Below are positions 4,237 to 16,036 of a stretch of DNA of 64,000 bases, piece by piece. The translations under genes were made by a program, and so were the position numbers. The stretch is from an uncultured bacterium (GTDB taxonomy: Bacteria > Babelota > Babeliae > Babelales > JACPOV01): the NCBI GenBank assembly GCA_963744715.1, contig CAVUUR010000007.1:96001-160000 (forward strand). Direction: 5' to 3'. Each line of letters opens with the position of its first letter. Position 1 is the first letter of the stretch. The notes below the pieces were generated by a model. It had not been told where the DNA came from. It made no database searches and saw nothing but the letters and a program-made list of their open reading frames with translations.

Positions 4237-4407
4237 ATGGTTAAAAGAAAAGTTGCAGCTAAAAAAGCCGCTCCAAAGAGAAAAGTCGCTAAAAGAGCCG
4301 CTTCAAAAAGAAAAGTTACCAAGAGAGCTGCTACAAAAAGAAAAGCTGCTAAAAGAGCACCTGCTCGAAAAGGTCATGCTGCTGCTAAAAAAGCTGCAAG
4401 CAAATAA
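4237..4407 (+). CDS. histone H1-like Lys/Arg/Ala-rich DNA-condensing protein (56 aa; not in ORF track)
   Basis: Manual translation MVKRKVAAKKAAPKRKVAKRAASKRKVTKRAATKRKAAKRAPARKGHAAAKKAASK; strong RBS, upstream promoter and downstream terminator. Confidence 0.88.
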   Translation: MVKRKVAAKKAAPKRKVAKRAASKRKVTKRAATKRKAAKRAPARKGHAAAKKAASK

Positions 4408-4466: not shown

Positions 4467-5069
4467 TTAGCGACTTTTTGTTACATCAACTCTTTTGCAA
4501 AGATCAAAAAGAGGACATTTCGAACACCAGGGAGAGATAGGAACGCAAATATTTTGTCCCCACATTACTAAAAGTTCATTAAATTCAATCCAATGGTGCT
4601 CCGGTACAACTTTTTTAAGGGCTCGTTCCGTTTCCTCGGGAGTTTTTGTTTTAATAATACCGAGCCTATTTGAGATTCTATGCACATGAGTATCAACACA
4701 CAGTGCGGGAATGCCAAAGCCAATTCCTAGAACTAAATTAGCCGTTTTTATGCCAACACCAGAAATAGAACGTAATTGTTCTTGCGTATGGGGCACCACG
4801 CCCGCAAATGTTTCAATAATATCCTTACTCACACTATGAACTAAGAGCGATTTGCGCCGATAGAAACCTAAGGGATATAAGATACGATGAAGTTCATGTA
4901 ATGGAATGGCAAGAAGTTCTTGGGGCGTTTTTGCTTGCTTAAAAAGTTTCCTACAAACCGGCAGGCATATGATATCTTTCGTTCGTAATCCGAGTAAACA
5001 CGCGATAAGTATAAGAAAAGGGTCTCGACCAAATTCTTTAACGATATAATACATCATCGGCTTTGTCAT
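4467..5069 (-). CDS. nth: endonuclease III (true start probably further upstream, near 5120-5126)
   Basis: HhH motif SISGVGIKTAN, VDTHVHRISNRLG, C-terminal CxxxxxxCxxCxxxxxC 4Fe-4S motif; frame stays open upstream (VHIEKIIAILREH). Confidence 0.93.
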   Translation of the reverse strand: MTKPMMYYIVKEFGRDPFLILIACLLGLRTKDIICLPVCRKLFKQAKTPQELLAIPLHELHRILYPLGFYRRKSLLVHSVSKDIIETFAGVVPHTQEQLRSISGVGIKTANLVLGIGFGIPALCVDTHVHRISNRLGIIKTKTPEETERALKKVVPEHHWIEFNELLVMWGQNICVPISPWCSKCPLFDLCKRVDVTKSR

Positions 5070-5214
5070 ATTCTTGGTATGTTCACGTAAAATTGCAATA
5101 ATTTTTTCAATATGAACATCTACCAGGGATTCCGATAATCTATTAATGTTTGATCCTTTTTAACTGATATTTGTAATAAGAAGATAGCTGTGTTAGAATA
5201 ACAAGGCTAAACTG

Positions 5215-5331
5215 TTATTGACATATTTCAATAAAATCCGCATCAACTGGTGGAACGACGGTCAAGGGAGAAATTAAACTAACAAACATTATAGCAATCA
5301 CTACTAAACTATAGTTTTTTTTGCTTACCAT
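5215..5331 (-). CDS. small exported peptide precursor (38 aa; not in ORF track)
   Basis: MVSKKNYSLVVIAIMFVSLISPLTVVPPVDADFIEICQ; GAAGGGG RBS; own sigma70-like promoter; signal-peptide-like n/h regions. Confidence 0.6.
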   Translation of the reverse strand: MVSKKNYSLVVIAIMFVSLISPLTVVPPVDADFIEICQ

Positions 5332-5375
5332 AAAGGCCCCTTCAAAAAATAAATTTAAATGATAATTAAGGACTA

Positions 5376-5404
5376 AATATAAGCATTTTTACGTAAAAAA
5401 GCAA
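5376..5404 (-). promoter_or_regulatory. sigma70-like promoter with palindromic spacer, driving the small peptide gene
   Basis: Minus strand TTGCTT-17bp-TATATT; perfect palindrome TTTTTACGTAAAAA at 5386-5399. Confidence 0.5.
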
Positions 5405-5414
5405 GAAAAAGAAT

Positions 5415-8156
5415 ATGACATTTTTAATAGATCCTCTCTATCAAATAGTTAGTAATTTTTATTTTTTATTATCCGTATTATCGGTAACTTTTTTATTAAA
5501 AACGGGTTTATTAGTATTAGCTATAATTCACGCCTCACGTTCAGAAAAAATAAAAAAACCATGGTTTTTTTTGTTATTAGTATTAATTGGATCTATGTTT
5601 TCAGATGCTACTTGGATTATAACCATATCAAAAAAGTTGTTTTTTGATTATGTTGAATATAAAACCATGCTAATTTTGTTTGTGCGTTTATCATGGGCCT
5701 GGCATATTATTGAATACCAGTCGCTATGCTTATTTATTGAAACATTAACCGAAAAAAATTATATAAAAAATTATAACAAACTCTTCGTTGTAGGCAGTTT
5801 TGCATTAACCCTAATGCATACCTATTTTGCAGTATTTAAATTTTATGATGTACATGATAGACCGCCCTTTGAATATACCTTAACACAAATCAGTTCTTTA
5901 TACGTTTTTGTTATTATGATGCCAACTTTATATTTTGCATTCAAAAATATACGGTTAAAAAAATTACCAAAAATTTTAACGAAACAATTAAAAATACTTA
6001 TTCAATTTTTAATATGTCCCTCACTGATATCAGATTTTCTTCAAATGTATCCCTTTTCATTCTACCCTGGCTACAGAGCCAGTAACTATGCTGCTGTTAG
6101 TATTTCAACGATACTTTTAACCTTTGCCTTTTATTTCTGCGCAAAAAAAATGATAGGGTTGCGATTCCTTAACTTTAATAACCATGTACAATCACCGGAT
6201 AGATTTAATTTTATTAATGATTTTCAGATTGTGCTTGAGCAACTGAGCCAAGTAACAAACCTTAAGGAATTGGGGCATATAACACAGGCCTTTTTTAAAG
6301 AAGCATTTGGTATACAACCGAGTAGAACGTTGCTCTACTTACGCAACCTTGAAACTAATAAAAAACACGAAGATGAGATTGATGCATCCAATTCACTCGG
6401 TTCGGTTGTAGAACATTTCATCCGTAGAGATGATAACAGCACCGCCGATTCAGTTTCGTCATTTCTTTTTCAAACCAAAATTCTTATCGCTGATGAATTA
6501 GCATTCAGTAATTTTTATGACGAAACCTCTTTGAGCCAAGAAATTCTTTCATTCCTCAATCTTATTAATGCCGATATTTTCATACCAATTTACGAAAAAA
6601 AAATCATTATTGCTTATATCATTGTAGAACGTGAAGCTCGCAATAATGAATTTTATACCAAAATGGAACATGATGAAATGACGGTGTTTGCAAGTTATCT
6701 TGCCAACGTCATTAATTTATTAAAAAATCGCAATCTTAATTCACTCATCCAACAAGAAAAAGAAATGCGTGAAGAACTTTATATAAAACATCAAGAAATT
6801 AATCAATATAAAGAAAGCATCCGTTCATTTTTACATGATACACAACAACGCAAAATCGGTATTATCTTTTATAAAAATCGAAAATTTTCGTATGGTAATC
6901 AAGCGGCCAAAGAATTCATTGACATCAATCCTAACACGCAAGATGGCCATTCATTGACTAAAGCACTAAAAACTATTGTGCATAATGTACAAGAATATAA
7001 AACAGCGCAAACATTATTAGTAAAAGATACTCAAGGTAACAAAATAGTAATTTCGGGTATTTCTAATTTAGAGGAAAATAATATCATTATTACTATATAT
7101 TATCCGGAAATTGCCGATATCTTAAAAGAACAACTCTCGCAAGCAAAAAATCCAAGCGAATGGGATTATATTCTTTACTTAGAAACTACGCAAACGGGAA
7201 AATTAATTAATCATCTCATTCCCGGAACTGGGCAGCACTTACTGAATTTTAAAATAGAACTTCTCAAAATGTCACTCAGTAAAAAAGCTTTATTACTTGA
7301 TATTCCTGAGCAGGATTTAACGGGAACCGTTGAGATTCTACACCATATCAGTTTGCGAGAAACCTTATATATGCTTAAATTGCAAGCTTATGAAAAAAAT
7401 CATGATACTGCCATTAAGCTTTTTGGTATTAATCCCATTTTTGGTAAAAGTCATGAACAACCGCTGCTTGAAAGACTCAATAACAATGGCACCTTATTCA
7501 TTCAAAATATTAATTTTTTATCACTGGAAACGCAGGAACATTTAGTTGAGTTTATTTGTTATGGTTATTATCATATCTTCAAAAGCGATCAAAAAACTAA
7601 TAGCAACGTACGTATCATTTGTTCTGCAAATCAGAATCTGCAAACACTGGTACAAGCGGGGAAATTTTCAAAAGCATTATTTAATGAATTAAAACAAACA
7701 ACGTTATCAATGCCCTCATTAATAACCTTGCCTGAAAAAGAACTTAATGAACTAGCACAGGGGTTTACTGAACAGGCTATAAAAACACAAACATTCAAAA
7801 ATCTTCTTGAATTAACACCGCGAGAAAAAGATAAACTTGTTCATGCGCGCCCGGTAAGCTTAGAGGAATTTAGAACGAAAATACAAACCATTCTTGTGCA
7901 CAAATCAAAGAAAAATAAAATTCTGCAAGAAACACAGTTCGACCCTGCGTATAATATTACCGACCCGGAATTAATTGTTGCAGCACGTTTAGGTAAAAAA
8001 GCATTAAAAGATCCTAAAATAATGGCTCTTTTATGGAATAAATTCAATAACCAAAACAAAATAGCAGCATTTTTAGGCGTCAATCGCTCGTCAGTTAACA
8101 GACGTTGTAAAGAATATGCTCTTGATACCACGGTGCAATCCGCACCGGCGACTTAA
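5415..8156 (+). CDS. membrane-anchored one-component regulator: multi-TM sensor + GAF/PAS-like region + degenerate sigma54-activator AAA+ + Fis-type HTH
   Basis: About 7 hydrophobic segments in the first ~250 aa; NGTLFIQNI, RIICSANQNL and GKFSKALFNEL resemble bEBP AAA+ motifs; C-terminal NQNKIAAFLGVNRSSVNRRCK HTH. Confidence 0.8.
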   Translation: MTFLIDPLYQIVSNFYFLLSVLSVTFLLKTGLLVLAIIHASRSEKIKKPWFFLLLVLIGSMFSDATWIITISKKLFFDYVEYKTMLILFVRLSWAWHIIEYQSLCLFIETLTEKNYIKNYNKLFVVGSFALTLMHTYFAVFKFYDVHDRPPFEYTLTQISSLYVFVIMMPTLYFAFKNIRLKKLPKILTKQLKILIQFLICPSLISDFLQMYPFSFYPGYRASNYAAVSISTILLTFAFYFCAKKMIGLRFLNFNNHVQSPDRFNFINDFQIVLEQLSQVTNLKELGHITQAFFKEAFGIQPSRTLLYLRNLETNKKHEDEIDASNSLGSVVEHFIRRDDNSTADSVSSFLFQTKILIADELAFSNFYDETSLSQEILSFLNLINADIFIPIYEKKIIIAYIIVEREARNNEFYTKMEHDEMTVFASYLANVINLLKNRNLNSLIQQEKEMREELYIKHQEINQYKESIRSFLHDTQQRKIGIIFYKNRKFSYGNQAAKEFIDINPNTQDGHSLTKALKTIVHNVQEYKTAQTLLVKDTQGNKIVISGISNLEENNIIITIYYPEIADILKEQLSQAKNPSEWDYILYLETTQTGKLINHLIPGTGQHLLNFKIELLKMSLSKKALLLDIPEQDLTGTVEILHHISLRETLYMLKLQAYEKNHDTAIKLFGINPIFGKSHEQPLLERLNNNGTLFIQNINFLSLETQEHLVEFICYGYYHIFKSDQKTNSNVRIICSANQNLQTLVQAGKFSKALFNELKQTTLSMPSLITLPEKELNELAQGFTEQAIKTQTFKNLLELTPREKDKLVHARPVSLEEFRTKIQTILVHKSKKNKILQETQFDPAYNITDPELIVAARLGKKALKDPKIMALLWNKFNNQNKIAAFLGVNRSSVNRRCKEYALDTTVQSAPAT

Positions 8157-8316: not shown

Positions 8317-9237
8317 ATGAATTTAGAAGAATTTAAATGTAAAAAAGATGAATTTCTTATTTATTTAGATGTTGAAAAAAATCTATCAATTCATACTCAA
8401 CGAGCTTACCAACATGATCTTGAACAATTTTACCATTTTTGGCATACCTTAAATACCAAAGAAAAAAAAACACTCACTATTCGCCATGTACTGGATCGTT
8501 TTTTTATTGCTCTTTACAATAAAAATATAGAAAAAAGCTCTATTGCTCGAAAAATTTCTTGTTTACAATCATTTAGAAAATTTCTTAAAAATCATGGGAT
8601 TATACTCTCTTTACAGTTAACCCGTCCACGCATCGATAAAAAATTACCAATTTATTTAAGTATAGATGAGATTTTCTATCTTCTTGATTCGATTCAAAAT
8701 CATGCCTTGCCGACAAGAAAACCGTATCGCGATAAAGCAATTTTTGAATTATTGTACGCAACCGGTATACGATGTTCAGAATTGGTAATGATCAAATTTT
8801 CTGATCTTGACCTTGAACATAAAATTATTCGCATCATCGGTAAAGGGAAAAAAGAACGCATTGCTCTTTTCGGTCAAAAGGCCAAAGACATTTTGTTGGC
8901 ATATTTATCACATGAACGAATACCCATGAAAGATCCTCATGAGCGTCTTTTTATTAATTATCGTAACGAACCACTCACAACACGATCCATTCAACGTATC
9001 ATCGAAATGTTCAGAAAGTTTTTAAAGATAAAACGCATTATCACGCCACACAAAATAAGACATTCTTTCGCAACGCATCTATTGCACCAGGGAACTGATC
9101 TTCGTATAGTACAAGAATTGTTAGGGCATAAAACATTAGCGAGTACTGAAAAATATACTCATGTGGAAAATCAACAATTAGCAGAATTATGCGATACATT
9201 ACATCCTTTTAATACTTTTAATAAAGTAAAAAAATAA
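8317..9237 (+). CDS. XerC/XerD-family tyrosine recombinase
   Basis: LLYATGIRCSE, GKGKKER, TPHKIRHSFATHLL, QELLGH, TEKYTHV. Confidence 0.93.
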   Translation: MNLEEFKCKKDEFLIYLDVEKNLSIHTQRAYQHDLEQFYHFWHTLNTKEKKTLTIRHVLDRFFIALYNKNIEKSSIARKISCLQSFRKFLKNHGIILSLQLTRPRIDKKLPIYLSIDEIFYLLDSIQNHALPTRKPYRDKAIFELLYATGIRCSELVMIKFSDLDLEHKIIRIIGKGKKERIALFGQKAKDILLAYLSHERIPMKDPHERLFINYRNEPLTTRSIQRIIEMFRKFLKIKRIITPHKIRHSFATHLLHQGTDLRIVQELLGHKTLASTEKYTHVENQQLAELCDTLHPFNTFNKVKK

Positions 9238-9244
9238 TGTATGA

Positions 9245-10972
9245 ATGAACAATATGCTTACCGCCACTGATTATAAAATAAAAATCATATGCTCTTGCTT
9301 TCTACTAAGCCTTATCTTAATTATGGGGCGACTTTTTTATCTTCAGATTTATTTGCATAATAACCTTATTAATCGCGCACACAAAAATTTTTATCGTACC
9401 GAAAAAATTTCCTCACGCCGTGGCAATATTTTTGATTGTAAGGGAAATTTATTAGCAACTAATAGACCGGTTACCATGATTTATTGGCAAGGCATGGAAC
9501 ACGGTGCAAAGGATGATTACCTGGCAACCCTTGCGCAACTAGAACAAATTTTAAAAAAGCCGATTATTAATACGGATCTTCACAAAGCGATTAAAACTGC
9601 CCAGAAACGTGGGAAAAAAGTACTGCTTCACTGCGATACCACCTTTGAGCAGTTAAGTAAAATTAAAGAACTATTCAGCACAAACCCGCATATTATTGTT
9701 ACTACTGACTTTAAGCGATATTACCCGCACCAAACATTGGCAAGTCATATTATTGGGTATATCAACACCTTTGATGAAAAAGCACATGGGAAAATGGGAT
9801 TAGAAAAAATGTTTGAAGATACGTTAAAAGGGGAACATGGCACGTTAATAAAAACAATTAACTCAATGGGAACCAGTTTATTAGAAAAACAAACAAAACA
9901 AGCGCTTGCCGGGCAGGATATTATTACCACCTTAGATTTATCACTTCAACGCATTGCCGAAGACGCATTTCCTCATGATCAGGCGGGTTGCCTTATCATT
10001 ATGGATCCAAAAACAGGAGCATTGCGCACGTTAGTTTCTAGACCAACCTTTGATCCAGATATTTTTCTTAATCGCATTTCCTTAGATACTTGGAATAGCT
10101 TACAAGAGAAAAAACCTTTCTTAAATCGCGCATTAAGCGCGTGTTATCCCCCTGCATCAATTTTTAAATTAATTACGCTGAGCGCCGCTCTTGAACATCA
10201 TATTATTGATTCCGATATGACATTTTTTTGTTGTGGATTTGTAGAATTTAAAGGAAGAAAATATTATTGTAATCGCAAACTCGGTCATGGCAATCTCTCT
10301 ATTGCAGAAGTCATTGCACAGTCCTGTAATATTCCTTTTTTTGAAATAGCCAAAACAATATCCATTGATACCCTTGCTGATTATGCACAACGATTTGGAC
10401 TTGGCATAAAAACAAATATCAATTTTCCTGAACTACAAGGACTCGTTCCTTCAACCCTATGGAAACTACAAACATTAAGCGAAGATTGGTGGCCGGGAGA
10501 AACGCTTTCGGCCGCTATAGGGCAAAGCTACCTTCTTGCTACACCATTACAAATTGCACGCATGATAGCAAGTATTTTTACCGGCTATCTGGTCAATCCG
10601 CGCATAGTAGAAGATGAGCCAATAACACAAATTCCGTTACAGATTAAGGATGAAACAAGAAAATTTTTAAAAAAAGCGATGAAACTTGGGGTAATACACG
10701 GAACCTCTAAAGGCGTTAGCAACATTAATGATTTTAAAATTTATGCAAAAACTGGCACGGCCCAAGTAATTTCATTATCAAAGCAGCAATCCAATGAGCA
10801 CTACCGTGAACATGCTTGGTTTGTAGCCCACGTACAATATCAAGATGAAACCCCACTTACCATAGTAATGTTGGTAGAACATGTAGGATCATCAAAAGAA
10901 GCAACCAAAATTGCTAAAAAACTATTAGTTAATTACCGCACCTTTATGCGTAAAAGTAAGATTTATACCTAA
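9245..10972 (+). CDS. mrdA: penicillin-binding protein 2 (class B transpeptidase)
   Basis: N-terminal TM, RGNIFD, RYYP, PASIFK (SxxK), SCN (SxN), KTGTAQ. Confidence 0.92.
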   Translation: MNNMLTATDYKIKIICSCFLLSLILIMGRLFYLQIYLHNNLINRAHKNFYRTEKISSRRGNIFDCKGNLLATNRPVTMIYWQGMEHGAKDDYLATLAQLEQILKKPIINTDLHKAIKTAQKRGKKVLLHCDTTFEQLSKIKELFSTNPHIIVTTDFKRYYPHQTLASHIIGYINTFDEKAHGKMGLEKMFEDTLKGEHGTLIKTINSMGTSLLEKQTKQALAGQDIITTLDLSLQRIAEDAFPHDQAGCLIIMDPKTGALRTLVSRPTFDPDIFLNRISLDTWNSLQEKKPFLNRALSACYPPASIFKLITLSAALEHHIIDSDMTFFCCGFVEFKGRKYYCNRKLGHGNLSIAEVIAQSCNIPFFEIAKTISIDTLADYAQRFGLGIKTNINFPELQGLVPSTLWKLQTLSEDWWPGETLSAAIGQSYLLATPLQIARMIASIFTGYLVNPRIVEDEPITQIPLQIKDETRKFLKKAMKLGVIHGTSKGVSNINDFKIYAKTGTAQVISLSKQQSNEHYREHAWFVAHVQYQDETPLTIVMLVEHVGSSKEATKIAKKLLVNYRTFMRKSKIYT

Positions 10973-13098: not shown

Positions 13099-14505
13099 TT
13101 ATCCTATTACTTCATTATTAGCAATTGCTTTACTATACCTTTTGCCTAATAAAATTGCAGTTACCGTCCAAATAGCTACAACAACGGCAAAAAACACTGC
13201 GTGTAAAGACATGAAGAACGCGGAACCTAATAATTCAGCGAAAATATTAAACCCAGATGCTGTGGCGCGTGCCAATTTTGCACCAAAAGCATCAATCCAT
13301 GATTTTGACTTAAATTTCATTTCTTTAACCGTAGGAATATATAAACTTTCACGTACTGGTTGAGCAAATGCATAATTAATAGATTTAAATAAAGTATATA
13401 CTACTGACAATGAAAACCAATCATACGCCAACATACAATAGAGCAATAAAAGACCGGTTGAAAGGGGAACTAGTAATAAACACTTTTCTTCACCCAATTT
13501 TTTTAATAATGCTCGCGTACCTATGAGCGAAATCAAAAACCCAGATAAATGTAAAAAGAAGGATTGTTGAAACAGAAAACAACTTAAATCAGAAATGTTA
13601 TTAGAAGATGAGTGCGCAACACCCAATCTTTGATAACTTAACACTTTATTGACCATCTCATAGAAAAACAACATGCCAAAAATGCCTAAAATATAGGGCC
13701 ATTTTATCATCATAGAAAGTCCTGAAAAAACTCCCATAGGCTGCTGGGATTCGGTACTTTCTTCACTGCGTTGTTTTTCAAATTGATATACGGCTTCATA
13801 ACCATGCAAATTTTTTCCTGGTACCTTTTTAATAAGCATGTAAATCATAAAAGGTACAAAAAACGCTAATAACGAGAAGAAAATGAGCAAAATCTGGTGA
13901 TTCGTGACATCAGAAAAAAAACGTGCCCCGCCAAATTTAGGCGTTAATAAAATCCATGCCAATCCAGCACTTAACATACCACCTATTTTGGACATAGCTA
14001 CCATAAGACCATAATTATTTTTAGCAGCTTCTGGACTATTTATAGAGTTAGCAAAAGCCCAAAAAACGCTGACAACAAAAGGGGTAAAGCCTTCAACAAA
14101 AAAATAAAAAAACCACCCAAATAAACGAACAGGGCTTGTCTGCGTATTATGTAAACCGATTACCGGGTCACCGAGCAAATAGGCACAGGCAAAACCAACA
14201 ATACTATAAAAAAAGCTGTAAATATACAGCAACTGATAGCGCCTAACTTTATCAACAAGAAATGAATAAAAAAGCACCGCGGGTATTAAAACAACAAATT
14301 CTAATAAATTAGCCCAAGGAATATATTCTCTACCAACAATGGCGATAAAAAAGGAATCTCTAAGGTCTCTAATTATCGTGTATGCACCAATAACCAAAAA
14401 AAAGGTAGCCGATAATAATATTAATTTTAAATGTTCACCTTTGTCAGCCACTTTAAAGGCAGTAAGTTTTCGTGCAAAATTAAAACTCATATAGCTTCCT
14501 ATCAA
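13099..14505 (-). CDS. ADP/ATP translocase / nucleotide transporter (TLC/NTT family)
   Basis: Multi-TM protein; RDLRDS, FWAFAN, KSINYA, LYIPT, FKSKSWIDAFGAK. Confidence 0.9.
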   Translation of the reverse strand: MIGSYMSFNFARKLTAFKVADKGEHLKLILLSATFFLVIGAYTIIRDLRDSFFIAIVGREYIPWANLLEFVVLIPAVLFYSFLVDKVRRYQLLYIYSFFYSIVGFACAYLLGDPVIGLHNTQTSPVRLFGWFFYFFVEGFTPFVVSVFWAFANSINSPEAAKNNYGLMVAMSKIGGMLSAGLAWILLTPKFGGARFFSDVTNHQILLIFFSLLAFFVPFMIYMLIKKVPGKNLHGYEAVYQFEKQRSEESTESQQPMGVFSGLSMMIKWPYILGIFGMLFFYEMVNKVLSYQRLGVAHSSSNNISDLSCFLFQQSFFLHLSGFLISLIGTRALLKKLGEEKCLLLVPLSTGLLLLYCMLAYDWFSLSVVYTLFKSINYAFAQPVRESLYIPTVKEMKFKSKSWIDAFGAKLARATASGFNIFAELLGSAFFMSLHAVFFAVVVAIWTVTAILLGKRYSKAIANNEVIG

Positions 14506-14550
14506 TTCTTATGCAATATGCCTAGCAAATATTAATTTTGGTGTATCTAC

Positions 14551-14594
14551 AAAAAAAGCCTTCTAAACTCCTAGAATTTAGAAGGCTTTTTTTT
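14551..14594. terminator. intrinsic terminator between the two translocase genes
   Basis: AAAAAAAGCCTTCTAAA...TTTAGAAGGCTTTTTTTT. Confidence 0.85.
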
Positions 14595-14623
14595 CATATA
14601 TTCAGCTCGTTTTCATATAACGA

Positions 14624-16036
14624 TTAAACTACGATACGATTTTCGTCAACCGCTTTATTAAATTTCTTTCCTAGAAACAAGGTTATGGGGAACCAAACGC
14701 CAATGATTATTAATGAAGCAACCGTACAGGTAGTAATAAATTTATTCAATCCTGCTACAGCGCCATAATTAGCCATATAGGTTTTACGCCACAAATTCAC
14801 GGTTGATCCTAACGCTTTTGAACCACGTGAACCGTACGTTTCAATAAACGCTTGCGATTTATATTTAGCTTCTTTACTGGTTGGAATATACAGTTGCTTC
14901 ATGGTTGGCTGATTTAAACCATAATTGATAGCCTTTGAAAGCACCATAATCCAGAATAAAACACTGATGAAAGGATATGCTTTAAAGGTCAATACAACAC
15001 ATGCTACTAGTATTGGTAAGGATGCTAATGCAGCACCAAGCCCTAAGTATTTTTGAATATTATTAATTTTCAACGAAATACTTAAAAGAGAAATAAGCCC
15101 TACCCATATACCGTAGTAACCTAGGTACACGGTTGCATCATGCGGATTAGGGTATACATCGTTAACAAAGGTCTTAAAATTGAAGTCGAGCACCGTAATA
15201 ATTACCTCATACGAAGTAATTATGGCAAAAATACCAAGCAAATATGAAGAAGAAAGAATTAACCACAAGCCTTCAAAAAAGCCTGGTTCTTCATGATTTT
15301 TTTTATCATTTTTACCGTGATATCCTACTAACTGCTCCTTAGGGACTACTGAAACAAAATAACGAATTAACGCAATGATAACAAACATCATAGCAGCAAC
15401 AAAAACAACTGATCCTGCTAATACTGATGCGCTCGTTCTAGCAGCTTCTGCCGATAATTCTCCTTCAGGGCCAACCTCTATATGAAATAATTTTGTCATA
15501 ATCAAGATTAATGACAATGGGCCAAAAATGTTTCCTAATTGTCCGCCAAAAGCTACAACTGGATAACCACGCTCAGCTGATTCTGGTAACGTTGTATCAC
15601 CAACAAATGCCCAAAATAATGCAACGATGAGTGAACCAAAACTTTCAACGTACACATACCATGCCCATCCCCACCATCTATAAAAATTTGCAGGCCCAGA
15701 ACTTAATCCAAGTGATGGACTCCAGATAAGAAAGGCGAATAGCAATGCTATTGATCCGTAGATGGTACATAATGCATAAAACATTTTTTCACGAGGAAAA
15801 ATGTCTACCAACTTAGAATAAATTAAAATAAGAGGGAAAACGACAATCATCGAAAGAAATTTTGCTTGAGGAATATAGTTAGCCCCCACAACGTTCATAA
15901 ATACTGAATCTTTAAGTGGACGCAAAAACCAGTACGATCCAATTACTAATCCAAATATAAATGATAAAAGTCCAAACTTTTTAAGTTCTCCTTCTTTAAA
16001 ATCTCCCCACCACAAGCGAGTAATTTTGGCAAACAT
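14624..16036 (-). CDS. ADP/ATP translocase / nucleotide transporter (TLC/NTT family)
   Basis: YWFLRPLKDS, ESFGSLIVALFWAF, KAINYGLNQPTMKQLYIPT, YKSQAFIE..GSRGSK. Confidence 0.92.
   Translation of the reverse strand: MFAKITRLWWGDFKEGELKKFGLLSFIFGLVIGSYWFLRPLKDSVFMNVVGANYIPQAKFLSMIVVFPLILIYSKLVDIFPREKMFYALCTIYGSIALLFAFLIWSPSLGLSSGPANFYRWWGWAWYVYVESFGSLIVALFWAFVGDTTLPESAERGYPVVAFGGQLGNIFGPLSLILIMTKLFHIEVGPEGELSAEAARTSASVLAGSVVFVAAMMFVIIALIRYFVSVVPKEQLVGYHGKNDKKNHEEPGFFEGLWLILSSSYLLGIFAIITSYEVIITVLDFNFKTFVNDVYPNPHDATVYLGYYGIWVGLISLLSISLKINNIQKYLGLGAALASLPILVACVVLTFKAYPFISVLFWIMVLSKAINYGLNQPTMKQLYIPTSKEAKYKSQAFIETYGSRGSKALGSTVNLWRKTYMANYGAVAGLNKFITTCTVASLIIIGVWFPITLFLGKKFNKAVDENRIVV

Follow-up and report, generated by a model that had tools for sequence, protein, structure and literature searches.

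Bacterial signalling peptides encoded beside their receptors are exemplified by agr, in which the AgrD gene lies next to that of the polytopic membrane receptor AgrC, and by the RRNPP family (SHP/Rgg, PapR/PlcR, PrgQ/PrgX), in which a small precursor with a basic and then hydrophobic N-terminus and a short C-terminal core accompanies its regulator, paralogous regulators having different peptides. As stated in PMC10075063, the RRNPP propeptide is 10–100 aa long and adjacent to the receptor gene, and the receptor is a cytoplasmic protein of 250–500 aa with tetratricopeptide repeats (TPR). The locus described here is a pair of divergent genes within a 64,000-nt stretch of DNA from an uncultured bacterium of the Babeliales (Dependentiae), i.e. 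positions 96,001 to 160,000 of contig CAVUUR010000007.1 in assembly GCA_963744715.1 (the window; its genome is denoted G000, and L numbers refer to homologous loci). The smaller gene, an open reading frame (ORF) of 38 codons, is a member of a conserved, mostly unannotated gene family, which in the Babeliales is paired with a regulator of seven transmembrane helices (7TM), GAF-like and PAS-like modules, an AAA+ domain predicted to be dead, and a helix-turn-helix (HTH). We consider it probable that the two form a peptide signalling cassette, in which an exported and processed peptide is the ligand of a kinase-free membrane regulator, and the peptide would then most likely be a strain-specific cell-to-cell signal.

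With agr the pair shares a peptide gene beside a polytopic membrane receptor, and a variable block that is passed on as a unit, the output part going with the rest of the genome, which is the pattern reported for agrBDC in PMC8768832. It differs from agr in that no kinase domain was identified by Pfam in 48 full-length regulators, and no receiver domain is present in the protein or in G000 (86% complete). An AgrB-like gene was not seen in the flanks, in a view of the neighbourhood that included no search with the AgrB family. As regards ring closure, Cys is not conserved, and no more than 20 of 137 peptides have one in their last three positions. The peptide family in turn has the length and the adjacency of RRNPP propeptides, together with their basic-hydrophobic N-terminus, short C-terminal core and paralogue-specific peptides, but the 913-aa seven-helix regulator is no cytoplasmic receptor of 250–500 aa, no TPR family occurred among the Pfam hits of the 48 full-length members, and the pair lies outside the Firmicutes. 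Because the receptor is a membrane protein, no re-import step is needed. The cassette would work like agr or SHP/Rgg but stands outside the membership of both.

The two ORFs and their spacing of 83 bp are as described in the initial annotation of this DNA, and the ribosome-binding site assigned there to the small ORF is present as a Shine-Dalgarno-like sequence, similar to sites found upstream of most peptide homologues. The features of the peptide gene and its partner are the following.

5215..5331, minus strand: peptide precursor gene, 38 aa with ATG start; basic N-region, hydrophobic region, Pro-Pro core and 10-residue tail
5248-5253, minus strand: Pro-Pro of the peptide precursor, codons 27-28
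5337-5343, minus strand: Shine-Dalgarno-like GAAGGGG of the peptide gene, 5 nt upstream of the ATG, read from the sequence
5415..8156, plus strand: membrane one-component regulator, 913 aa

For the peptide and the region, no match was found in Pfam, NCBIfam or Rfam, and two of eight peptides looked up in a collection of 15 billion proteins, the two longest, were present as hypothetical proteins. A sequencing error in the TAA codon at 5215-5217, which could have hidden a longer gene, had been named as a possible objection; since read-through gives only 23 further codons followed by two stops, the small ORF is not a broken longer gene.

Pairing of peptide and regulator was assessed computationally with a fixed rule set after the first 30 loci, which asked for a divergent ATG-initiated ORF of 15–120 aa, with its start 40–250 bp from the regulator start, and with a hydrophobic stretch followed by Pro-Pro. 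In the discovery set the rule matched 36 of 49 regulators, whereas of the 715 long ORFs of G000 it matched 5, one of them being the window locus itself. Among held-out metagenome loci (54 distinct, full-length regulator copies with at least 350 nt upstream, among 78 loci fetched), 37 of 54 regulators matched versus 0 of 94 other long ORFs, thereby bearing out the expectation that homologous regulators have a conserved small ORF beside them; 10 further held-out regulators had a hydrophobic ORF with a single Pro. A relaxed rule, made after the fact, was matched by 137 of 148 pooled regulators and by 100 of 715 background ORFs, and some few of the 137 peptides may therefore be wrong picks. The gap to the regulator was mostly 60–140 bp, and the median peptide length 33 aa.

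The peptide gene is under coding constraint. Pooled dN/dS (nonsynonymous over synonymous substitution) was 0.46 in 37 non-overlapping pairs, with synonymous sites near saturation in many of them, and the Pro-Pro was kept at protein level, as ten different codon pairs were used among 37 peptides. This variety of codons also rules out the Pro-Pro as a by-product of an antisense GGAGG. It is hardly credible, and already largely refuted, that the small ORF is a chance or vestigial frame in an AT-rich gap: a divergent hydrophobic ORF does lie beside 173 of the 715 long ORFs of G000, but with Pro-Pro the background falls to the above 5 of 715 and 0 of 94, and the ORF has its own promoter, Shine-Dalgarno site and purifying selection.

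Additional small ORFs of related appearance were encountered. Two short ORFs with a Shine-Dalgarno site, hydrophobic leader and Pro-Pro, and with no regulator beside them, lie in G000 (C12, near 209365 on the minus and 225141 on the plus strand), and are possibly orphan peptides or chance frames. Some distant regulators face secreted-type proteins of 61–116 aa without Pro-Pro (L047:4316-4594, L050:4376-4723, L044:4228-4515, L045:2742-2984, L027:3104-3286), of which that at L027 has repeated Pro-Asp units. Genome G083 contains five very divergent regulator copies; at L215, L220, L223 and L226 no divergent peptide passed the filter, and at the fifth copy (L227) a 43-aa secreted-type divergent peptide did.

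A typical precursor has about 33 aa, with an N-terminal net charge of +1 to +3, an uncharged run of about 15 residues (median 15, 10th–90th percentile 12–23), and then x-Pro-Pro with one to four residues. By simple counts this anatomy is signal-peptide-like, and export through Sec or PptAB, as for RRNPP propeptides, is conceivable. A small residue (G, S or A) was found three positions before the core in 63 of 123 peptides, and D or E two positions before it in 54 of 123. The conserved and probably active part is x-Pro-Pro-x-x after the leader. The initial annotation had proposed the processed polar tail as the pheromone and had not singled out the Pro-Pro core. However, the tail is peculiar to the window copy: as the tail after the core has at most four residues in 105 of 120 homologues, the 10-residue tail is not the conserved signal, and none of the 11 printed tails of 5–14 residues resembled it. 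By eye, a signal-peptidase-like site is readable just before the last seven residues of the window peptide.

The core was set 15–34 mostly polar residues behind the leader in 11 of 120 precursors, and repeated in 8 of 120, up to five times, two of the eight only as PPTPP. Such spacers and repeats suggest that the core is excised as a unit and is not a helix cap. Candidate processing enzymes encoded by G000 are one signal peptidase I and two M50 proteases. Prolines may shield a short core from exopeptidases.

Peptide genes multiply both with and without their regulators. Duplicated cassettes carry different peptides (L161, from the complete genome AP025250.1, L176, and L211 with L216), and the peptide gene was amplified alone into three identical copies 144 bp apart at L214:2445-2828, two near-identical copies at L212:1108-1408 and three diverged copies at L053:4350-4910; the second copies of the tandem pairs at L041, L069, L132 and L144 had no peptide. 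The co-variation of peptide and receptor anticipated in the initial annotation was also found, as in 56 non-overlapping pairs, once cytoplasmic distance was removed, the outer 7TM half diverged in step with the core (rho 0.52), and GAF did not (-0.10). The division into outer and inner halves rests on the assigned topology. In the 26 closest pairs, the median proportion of nonsynonymous differences was 0.18 in 7TM, 0.08 in GAF and 0.05 beyond, and of synonymous differences (pS) 0.67, 0.63 and 0.60, respectively. Loci L101 and L106 are 83–97% identical in both flanks versus 56–74% across peptide and 7TM, and L004 and L006 display the reverse pattern, with 7TM far closer than the rest (pS 0.14 vs about 0.5). 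The peptide and the 7TM domain thus form a hypervariable block between conserved flanks, which is the pattern of an exchanged specificity block.

For the regulator, a structure model from 48 sequences (pLDDT 83) begins with seven long helices, has alpha/beta modules where GAF and PAS are expected, and ends with an AAA+ core and an HTH, in accordance with the domain order that had been read from the letters alone. Mean pairwise identity was 26% in the membrane domain vs 65% in the HTH. The domains of the window copy are located as follows.

5457..6173, plus strand: seven-helix membrane domain, aa 15-253; predicted N-out/C-in, GPCR-like fold (GPCR, G-protein-coupled receptor), least conserved part
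6210..7100, plus strand: GAF-like module (aa 266-438), coiled coil (441-476) and PAS-like module (482-562), by secondary-structure pattern
7233..7913, plus strand: AAA+ domain of the bacterial enhancer-binding protein (bEBP) type; degenerate at Walker A, GAFTGA, Walker B and the arginine finger alike
7965..8114, plus strand: Fis-type HTH with near-invariant recognition helix; HTH_8 in 15 of 48

The membrane domain matched no Pfam or NCBIfam family, and the hidden Markov model (HMM) of HisKA_7TM (PF16927) none of the 48 members at E 1. Its best fold matches were GPCRs (Z 16.4, rmsd 4.0 Å over 233 residues), which with GPCR-like designs occupied ranks 1–41, followed by a microbial rhodopsin at Z 14.3, on a scale where helical bundles can reach Z 13–14 by arrangement alone. 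The modelled domain is GPCR-like in fold but differs from GPCRs in low identity and in its direct fusion to the effector, the likeness being one of structure. Other output domains on the 7TM were not found among 25 longer proteins, which is a weak test. GAF and PAS are likely names for the middle domains, which are not firmly matched: Pfam support is weak and in single members, and the ESM Atlas look-alikes with GAF are leads. By language model, look-alikes of aa 1-440 resembling HisKA_7TM-GAF sensors occur in many phyla, among them a 7TM + HTH_8 cluster at 0.86, and are likewise leads only; the HisKA_7TM-GAF sensors differ by their kinase output and by the absence of an HMM match. The 7TM-GAF look-alikes in other phyla include a cluster of 1069 members that is commonest in Saccharimonadota, and one with HTH_8.

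The AAA+-like region named in the initial annotation was retained as a bEBP-type domain, but without the function of one. Its core resembles sigma-54 activators, with Brucella NtrX as the top structural match, but its motifs are degenerate both in the consensus of the 48 members and in all of the 12 individual sequences displayed, and sigma-54 exceeded the cut-off in 0 of 61 genomes, with one weak match (control 4 of 14). From these motifs the domain is predicted to be catalytically dead and the regulator not to be a working sigma-54 activator. With the sigma-54-independent enhancer-binding proteins NtrX, TyrR, DhaR and VpsR it shares the bEBP-type AAA+ domain and Fis-type HTH, and gave partial NCBIfam hits far below cut-off, but it differs from them by the loss of all four catalytic or sigma-54 contact motifs, by fusion to a seven-helix receptor, and by pairing with a peptide gene. 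Paralogous regulators broken by stops or frameshifts, with the neighbouring copy or the peptide intact, were seen at L034, L040, L055, L176, L212 and L218; they may represent decay of spare alleles or assembly errors.

Two conserved promoter motifs were obtained at the locus.

5376..5404, minus strand: sigma-70-type promoter of the peptide gene, TTGCTT-17-TATATT, by de novo motif in homologous loci
5171..5199, plus strand: extended -10 promoter past the peptide stop, antisense through the peptide gene and toward the regulator; candidate regulator promoter

In 98 of 125 loci, de novo fitting upstream of the peptides gave a TTG(A/C)-type -35 box separated by 17 nt from a TATA(C/A)T -10 box (log-likelihood 1062, vs 132 after shuffling). 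The TTGCTT-17-TATATT promoter already proposed for the small ORF lies in this register, and was not listed by a plain consensus promoter scan. Its -35 box is located 10 nt from the regulator start codon, and the -35 hexamer is followed by TT in 87 of 104 peptide promoters, but in only 18 of 100 promoter-like sites taken from the whole of G000, which may reflect an operator half-site or a constraint from the regulator start region on the opposite strand. A second de novo fit placed the extended -10 promoter on the regulator strand in 77 of the 98 loci with adjacent nth (974 vs 122), and no comparable antisense motif was found in the other 27 loci, in which nth is not adjacent. As there is no terminator-like site on the plus strand between this promoter and 5415, the simplest reading is that it drives the regulator, its transcript crossing the peptide gene, and that the two promoters face each other. 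The predicted transcript starts are near 5206 (plus strand) and 5369 (minus strand). A count with generic sigma-70 frequencies, which gave 32 of 43 for the peptide promoters, 17 of 43 for the antisense position and 3 of 43 for the control, is superseded by the de novo fits.

The prgQ/prgX genes reportedly form a face-to-face promoter switch, and the same layout in scbA/scbR was modelled as a bistable switch in PMC3134472. Common to these and the present locus are signal and receptor genes on face-to-face promoters with overlapping RNAs; the difference is that the promoters here are predicted only, and that the two RNAs would overlap along the entire peptide gene, over about 160 nt. With its small size, its hydrophobicity and a conserved antisense promoter next to its 3′-end, the ORF also resembles part of a type I toxin-antitoxin-like unit, in which the toxin is silenced by antisense RNA from the promoter past its stop. 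We regard this as very unlikely, because there is no plus-strand terminator-like site before the regulator and no Rfam match, some precursors are soluble or have multiple cores, and the peptide co-varies with the receptor head.

As operators, palindromic motif fits were rejected because they mostly re-found promoter boxes, and so was a near-perfect 20-bp palindrome at 5383-5402 in the spacer of the peptide promoter, which was not enriched in homologues (3 of 125 vs 3.4). A strict promoter pattern had 18 sites in 31 genomes, of which 7 were peptide promoters and 11 had no common downstream gene. In G000 the extended -35 motif was also found before C2:92482-93150, C2:20859-21245, C6:186416-187429 and C12:80207-81502; these four genes all start with a signal-peptide-like stretch and are possible targets, with no common set in relatives.

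The conserved neighbours of the pair are the following.

4467..5147, minus strand: nth (endonuclease III), downstream of the peptide on the same strand; usual flank, only a candidate for membership in the system
8317..10972, plus strand: XerC-like recombinase and PBP2 genes, which often flank the regulator on its downstream side; by position, possible targets

The nth gene probably starts at ATT 5147 with a Shine-Dalgarno-like site, giving 226 aa as in relatives rather than 200 aa. After the regulator, xerC was found in 60 and pbp in 45 of 142 loci. Downstream of nth, and convergent with it, is a Lys/Ala/Arg-rich histone-like ORF (window 4237-4407, plus strand), with similar ORFs there in several relatives, and farther away are two tandem ATP/ADP translocase genes (13099-16036, minus strand), typical of energy parasites.

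Within 1.3 kb, nth is present in 105 of 139 loci, where it follows on the peptide strand, and a terminator-like hairpin after the peptide occurs in only 4 of 102 such loci. Moreover, ribosomes are known to stall at Pro-Pro near a stop codon. Both would fit a peptide that serves as a leader controlling nth, or one whose core, by the amount arriving at the receptor, gauges the cell's own secretion, proteolysis or translation (Sec, signal peptidase, M50 protease, or translation of Pro-Pro with EF-P). This explanation is improbable, since the peptide stays with the regulator where nth is not next, then having more often a terminator-like hairpin of its own (9 of 35), single-Pro variants exist, and a gauge gives no reason for allele-specific diversification.

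On the preferred reading, a ligand released outside the cell, the basic-hydrophobic leader would bring the precursor into the Sec pathway, and a membrane protease would release a short core of about 5–8 residues built on x-Pro-Pro-x-x, which would bind the outer face of the cognate seven-helix domain. We infer export, cleavage and binding from the precursor anatomy and the pairing. The signal would then pass from 7TM through GAF, coiled coil and PAS to the dead AAA+ scaffold, which would set the oligomeric state of the Fis-type HTH, and the HTH would switch sigma-70 promoters, in a direction and at targets that are likewise conjectural, without kinase, ATP hydrolysis or sigma-54. As peptide and receptor head diversify as one block, specificity groups would arise, and the opposing promoters, with the peptide gene in their overlap, could make the response switch-like.

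Several observations weigh against a released ligand. Eleven of 148 regulators, several of them second copies in tandem pairs, have no peptide even by the relaxed rule, and the window copy itself is atypical in its long tail and lack of an acidic residue before the core. The inner half of 7TM co-varies with the core at 0.50, and for the leader the values are 0.47 and 0.57 (56 pairs), about as strongly as core and outer half do. As the DNA of peptide and 7TM is adjacent, co-variation shows joint inheritance and not contact. The GPCR likeness, at 5–13% identity, concerns the fold only and has no bearing on function, and Foldseek of the 7TM returned no hit at E 0.001 (best E 0.0024). Palindrome and promoter-pattern searches found no operator or regulon. 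Co-folding of the 7TM domain with the peptide, which scored 0.29 vs a mark of 0.32 in a run without controls, speaks neither for nor against binding.

Most precursors end one to four residues past the Pro-Pro, right behind the hydrophobic stretch, as would be equally expected of a partner anchored in the membrane. The peptide could be an uncleaved single-pass protein that, as co-component or tethered ligand, binds to the seven-helix bundle of its own cell and tunes it, the real signal being e.g. a host lipid or envelope state. Its median uncharged run of 15 residues and very short tail would agree with this, as would the leader that co-varies with 7TM as well as the core does; long polar spacers, repeated cores and stand-alone amplification of the peptide gene better fit a released unit. 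We hold the tethered partner to be unlikely, though the most serious of the alternatives. The proposal of a peptide signalling pair in the initial annotation stands in its conserved exported-type peptide gene, which lies beside a kinase-free membrane regulator and varies along with the sensor domain, and fails in the polar tail, which is not the conserved part; the sensing of density or kin inside the host, and control of lysis or development, are conjectural roles.

The regulator was found in 40 of 61 related genomes. Of 201 genomes of the phylum, 151 have its receptor domain, and there are whole families without it. Most named relatives bear the label Dependentiae, Babeliales or TM6; some are called just 'bacterium' or 'uncultured Pseudomonadota', and an Acidobacteriaceae bin, which shares the gene order, is presumably mislabelled. 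A two-component form was sought in the 21 genomes without the regulator. At a conserved locus (L228-L236), nine of the 21 encode a receiver-AAA+-HTH protein of NtrX type with weak likeness to the regulator (35% over 81 aa). Neither a seven-helix kinase nor a divergent Pro-Pro peptide gene was seen within about 6 kb of it (some loci being cut by contig ends), and a two-component form was rejected for these loci. By eye, the neighbours of the NtrX-like protein are ABC transporter, MoxR-like and secretin-like genes, and its distribution is nearly complementary to that of the 7TM regulator.

Dependentiae are widespread obligate protist parasites with very few regulators. Given that the receptor is present in 151 of 201 genomes, and a receiver domain in only 3 of the 40 regulator-carrying genomes, the regulator may be among their main sensors. 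No published description of the peptide-regulator pair was found in the literature searched (at title and abstract level, with few subscription papers and no supplementary gene tables). The cassette is real, widespread and apparently undescribed. For Chromulinavorax destructans, quorum-sensing mechanisms are stated to be absent in PMC6561590, and the same source mentions delayed fission and large replication bodies. A link between the cassette and the delayed fission of these parasites is a guess. More tentatively than the ligand itself, and with some doubt, most Dependentiae may own a peptide communication in which a Pro-Pro peptide binds a receptor-transcription factor of GPCR fold, swappable alleles count kin within or between host cells, and the promoter switch times the passage from the undivided replication body to fission and exit. 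If the ligand reading is true, the pair would be a new variant of peptide signalling in a group without described signalling of such kind, and, from a Gram-negative-like lineage, would add a third architecture to those of the membrane kinases and the cytoplasmic TPR receptors. It would offer over a hundred natural peptide-receptor pairs of one seven-helix fold, open to testing with synthetic peptides.

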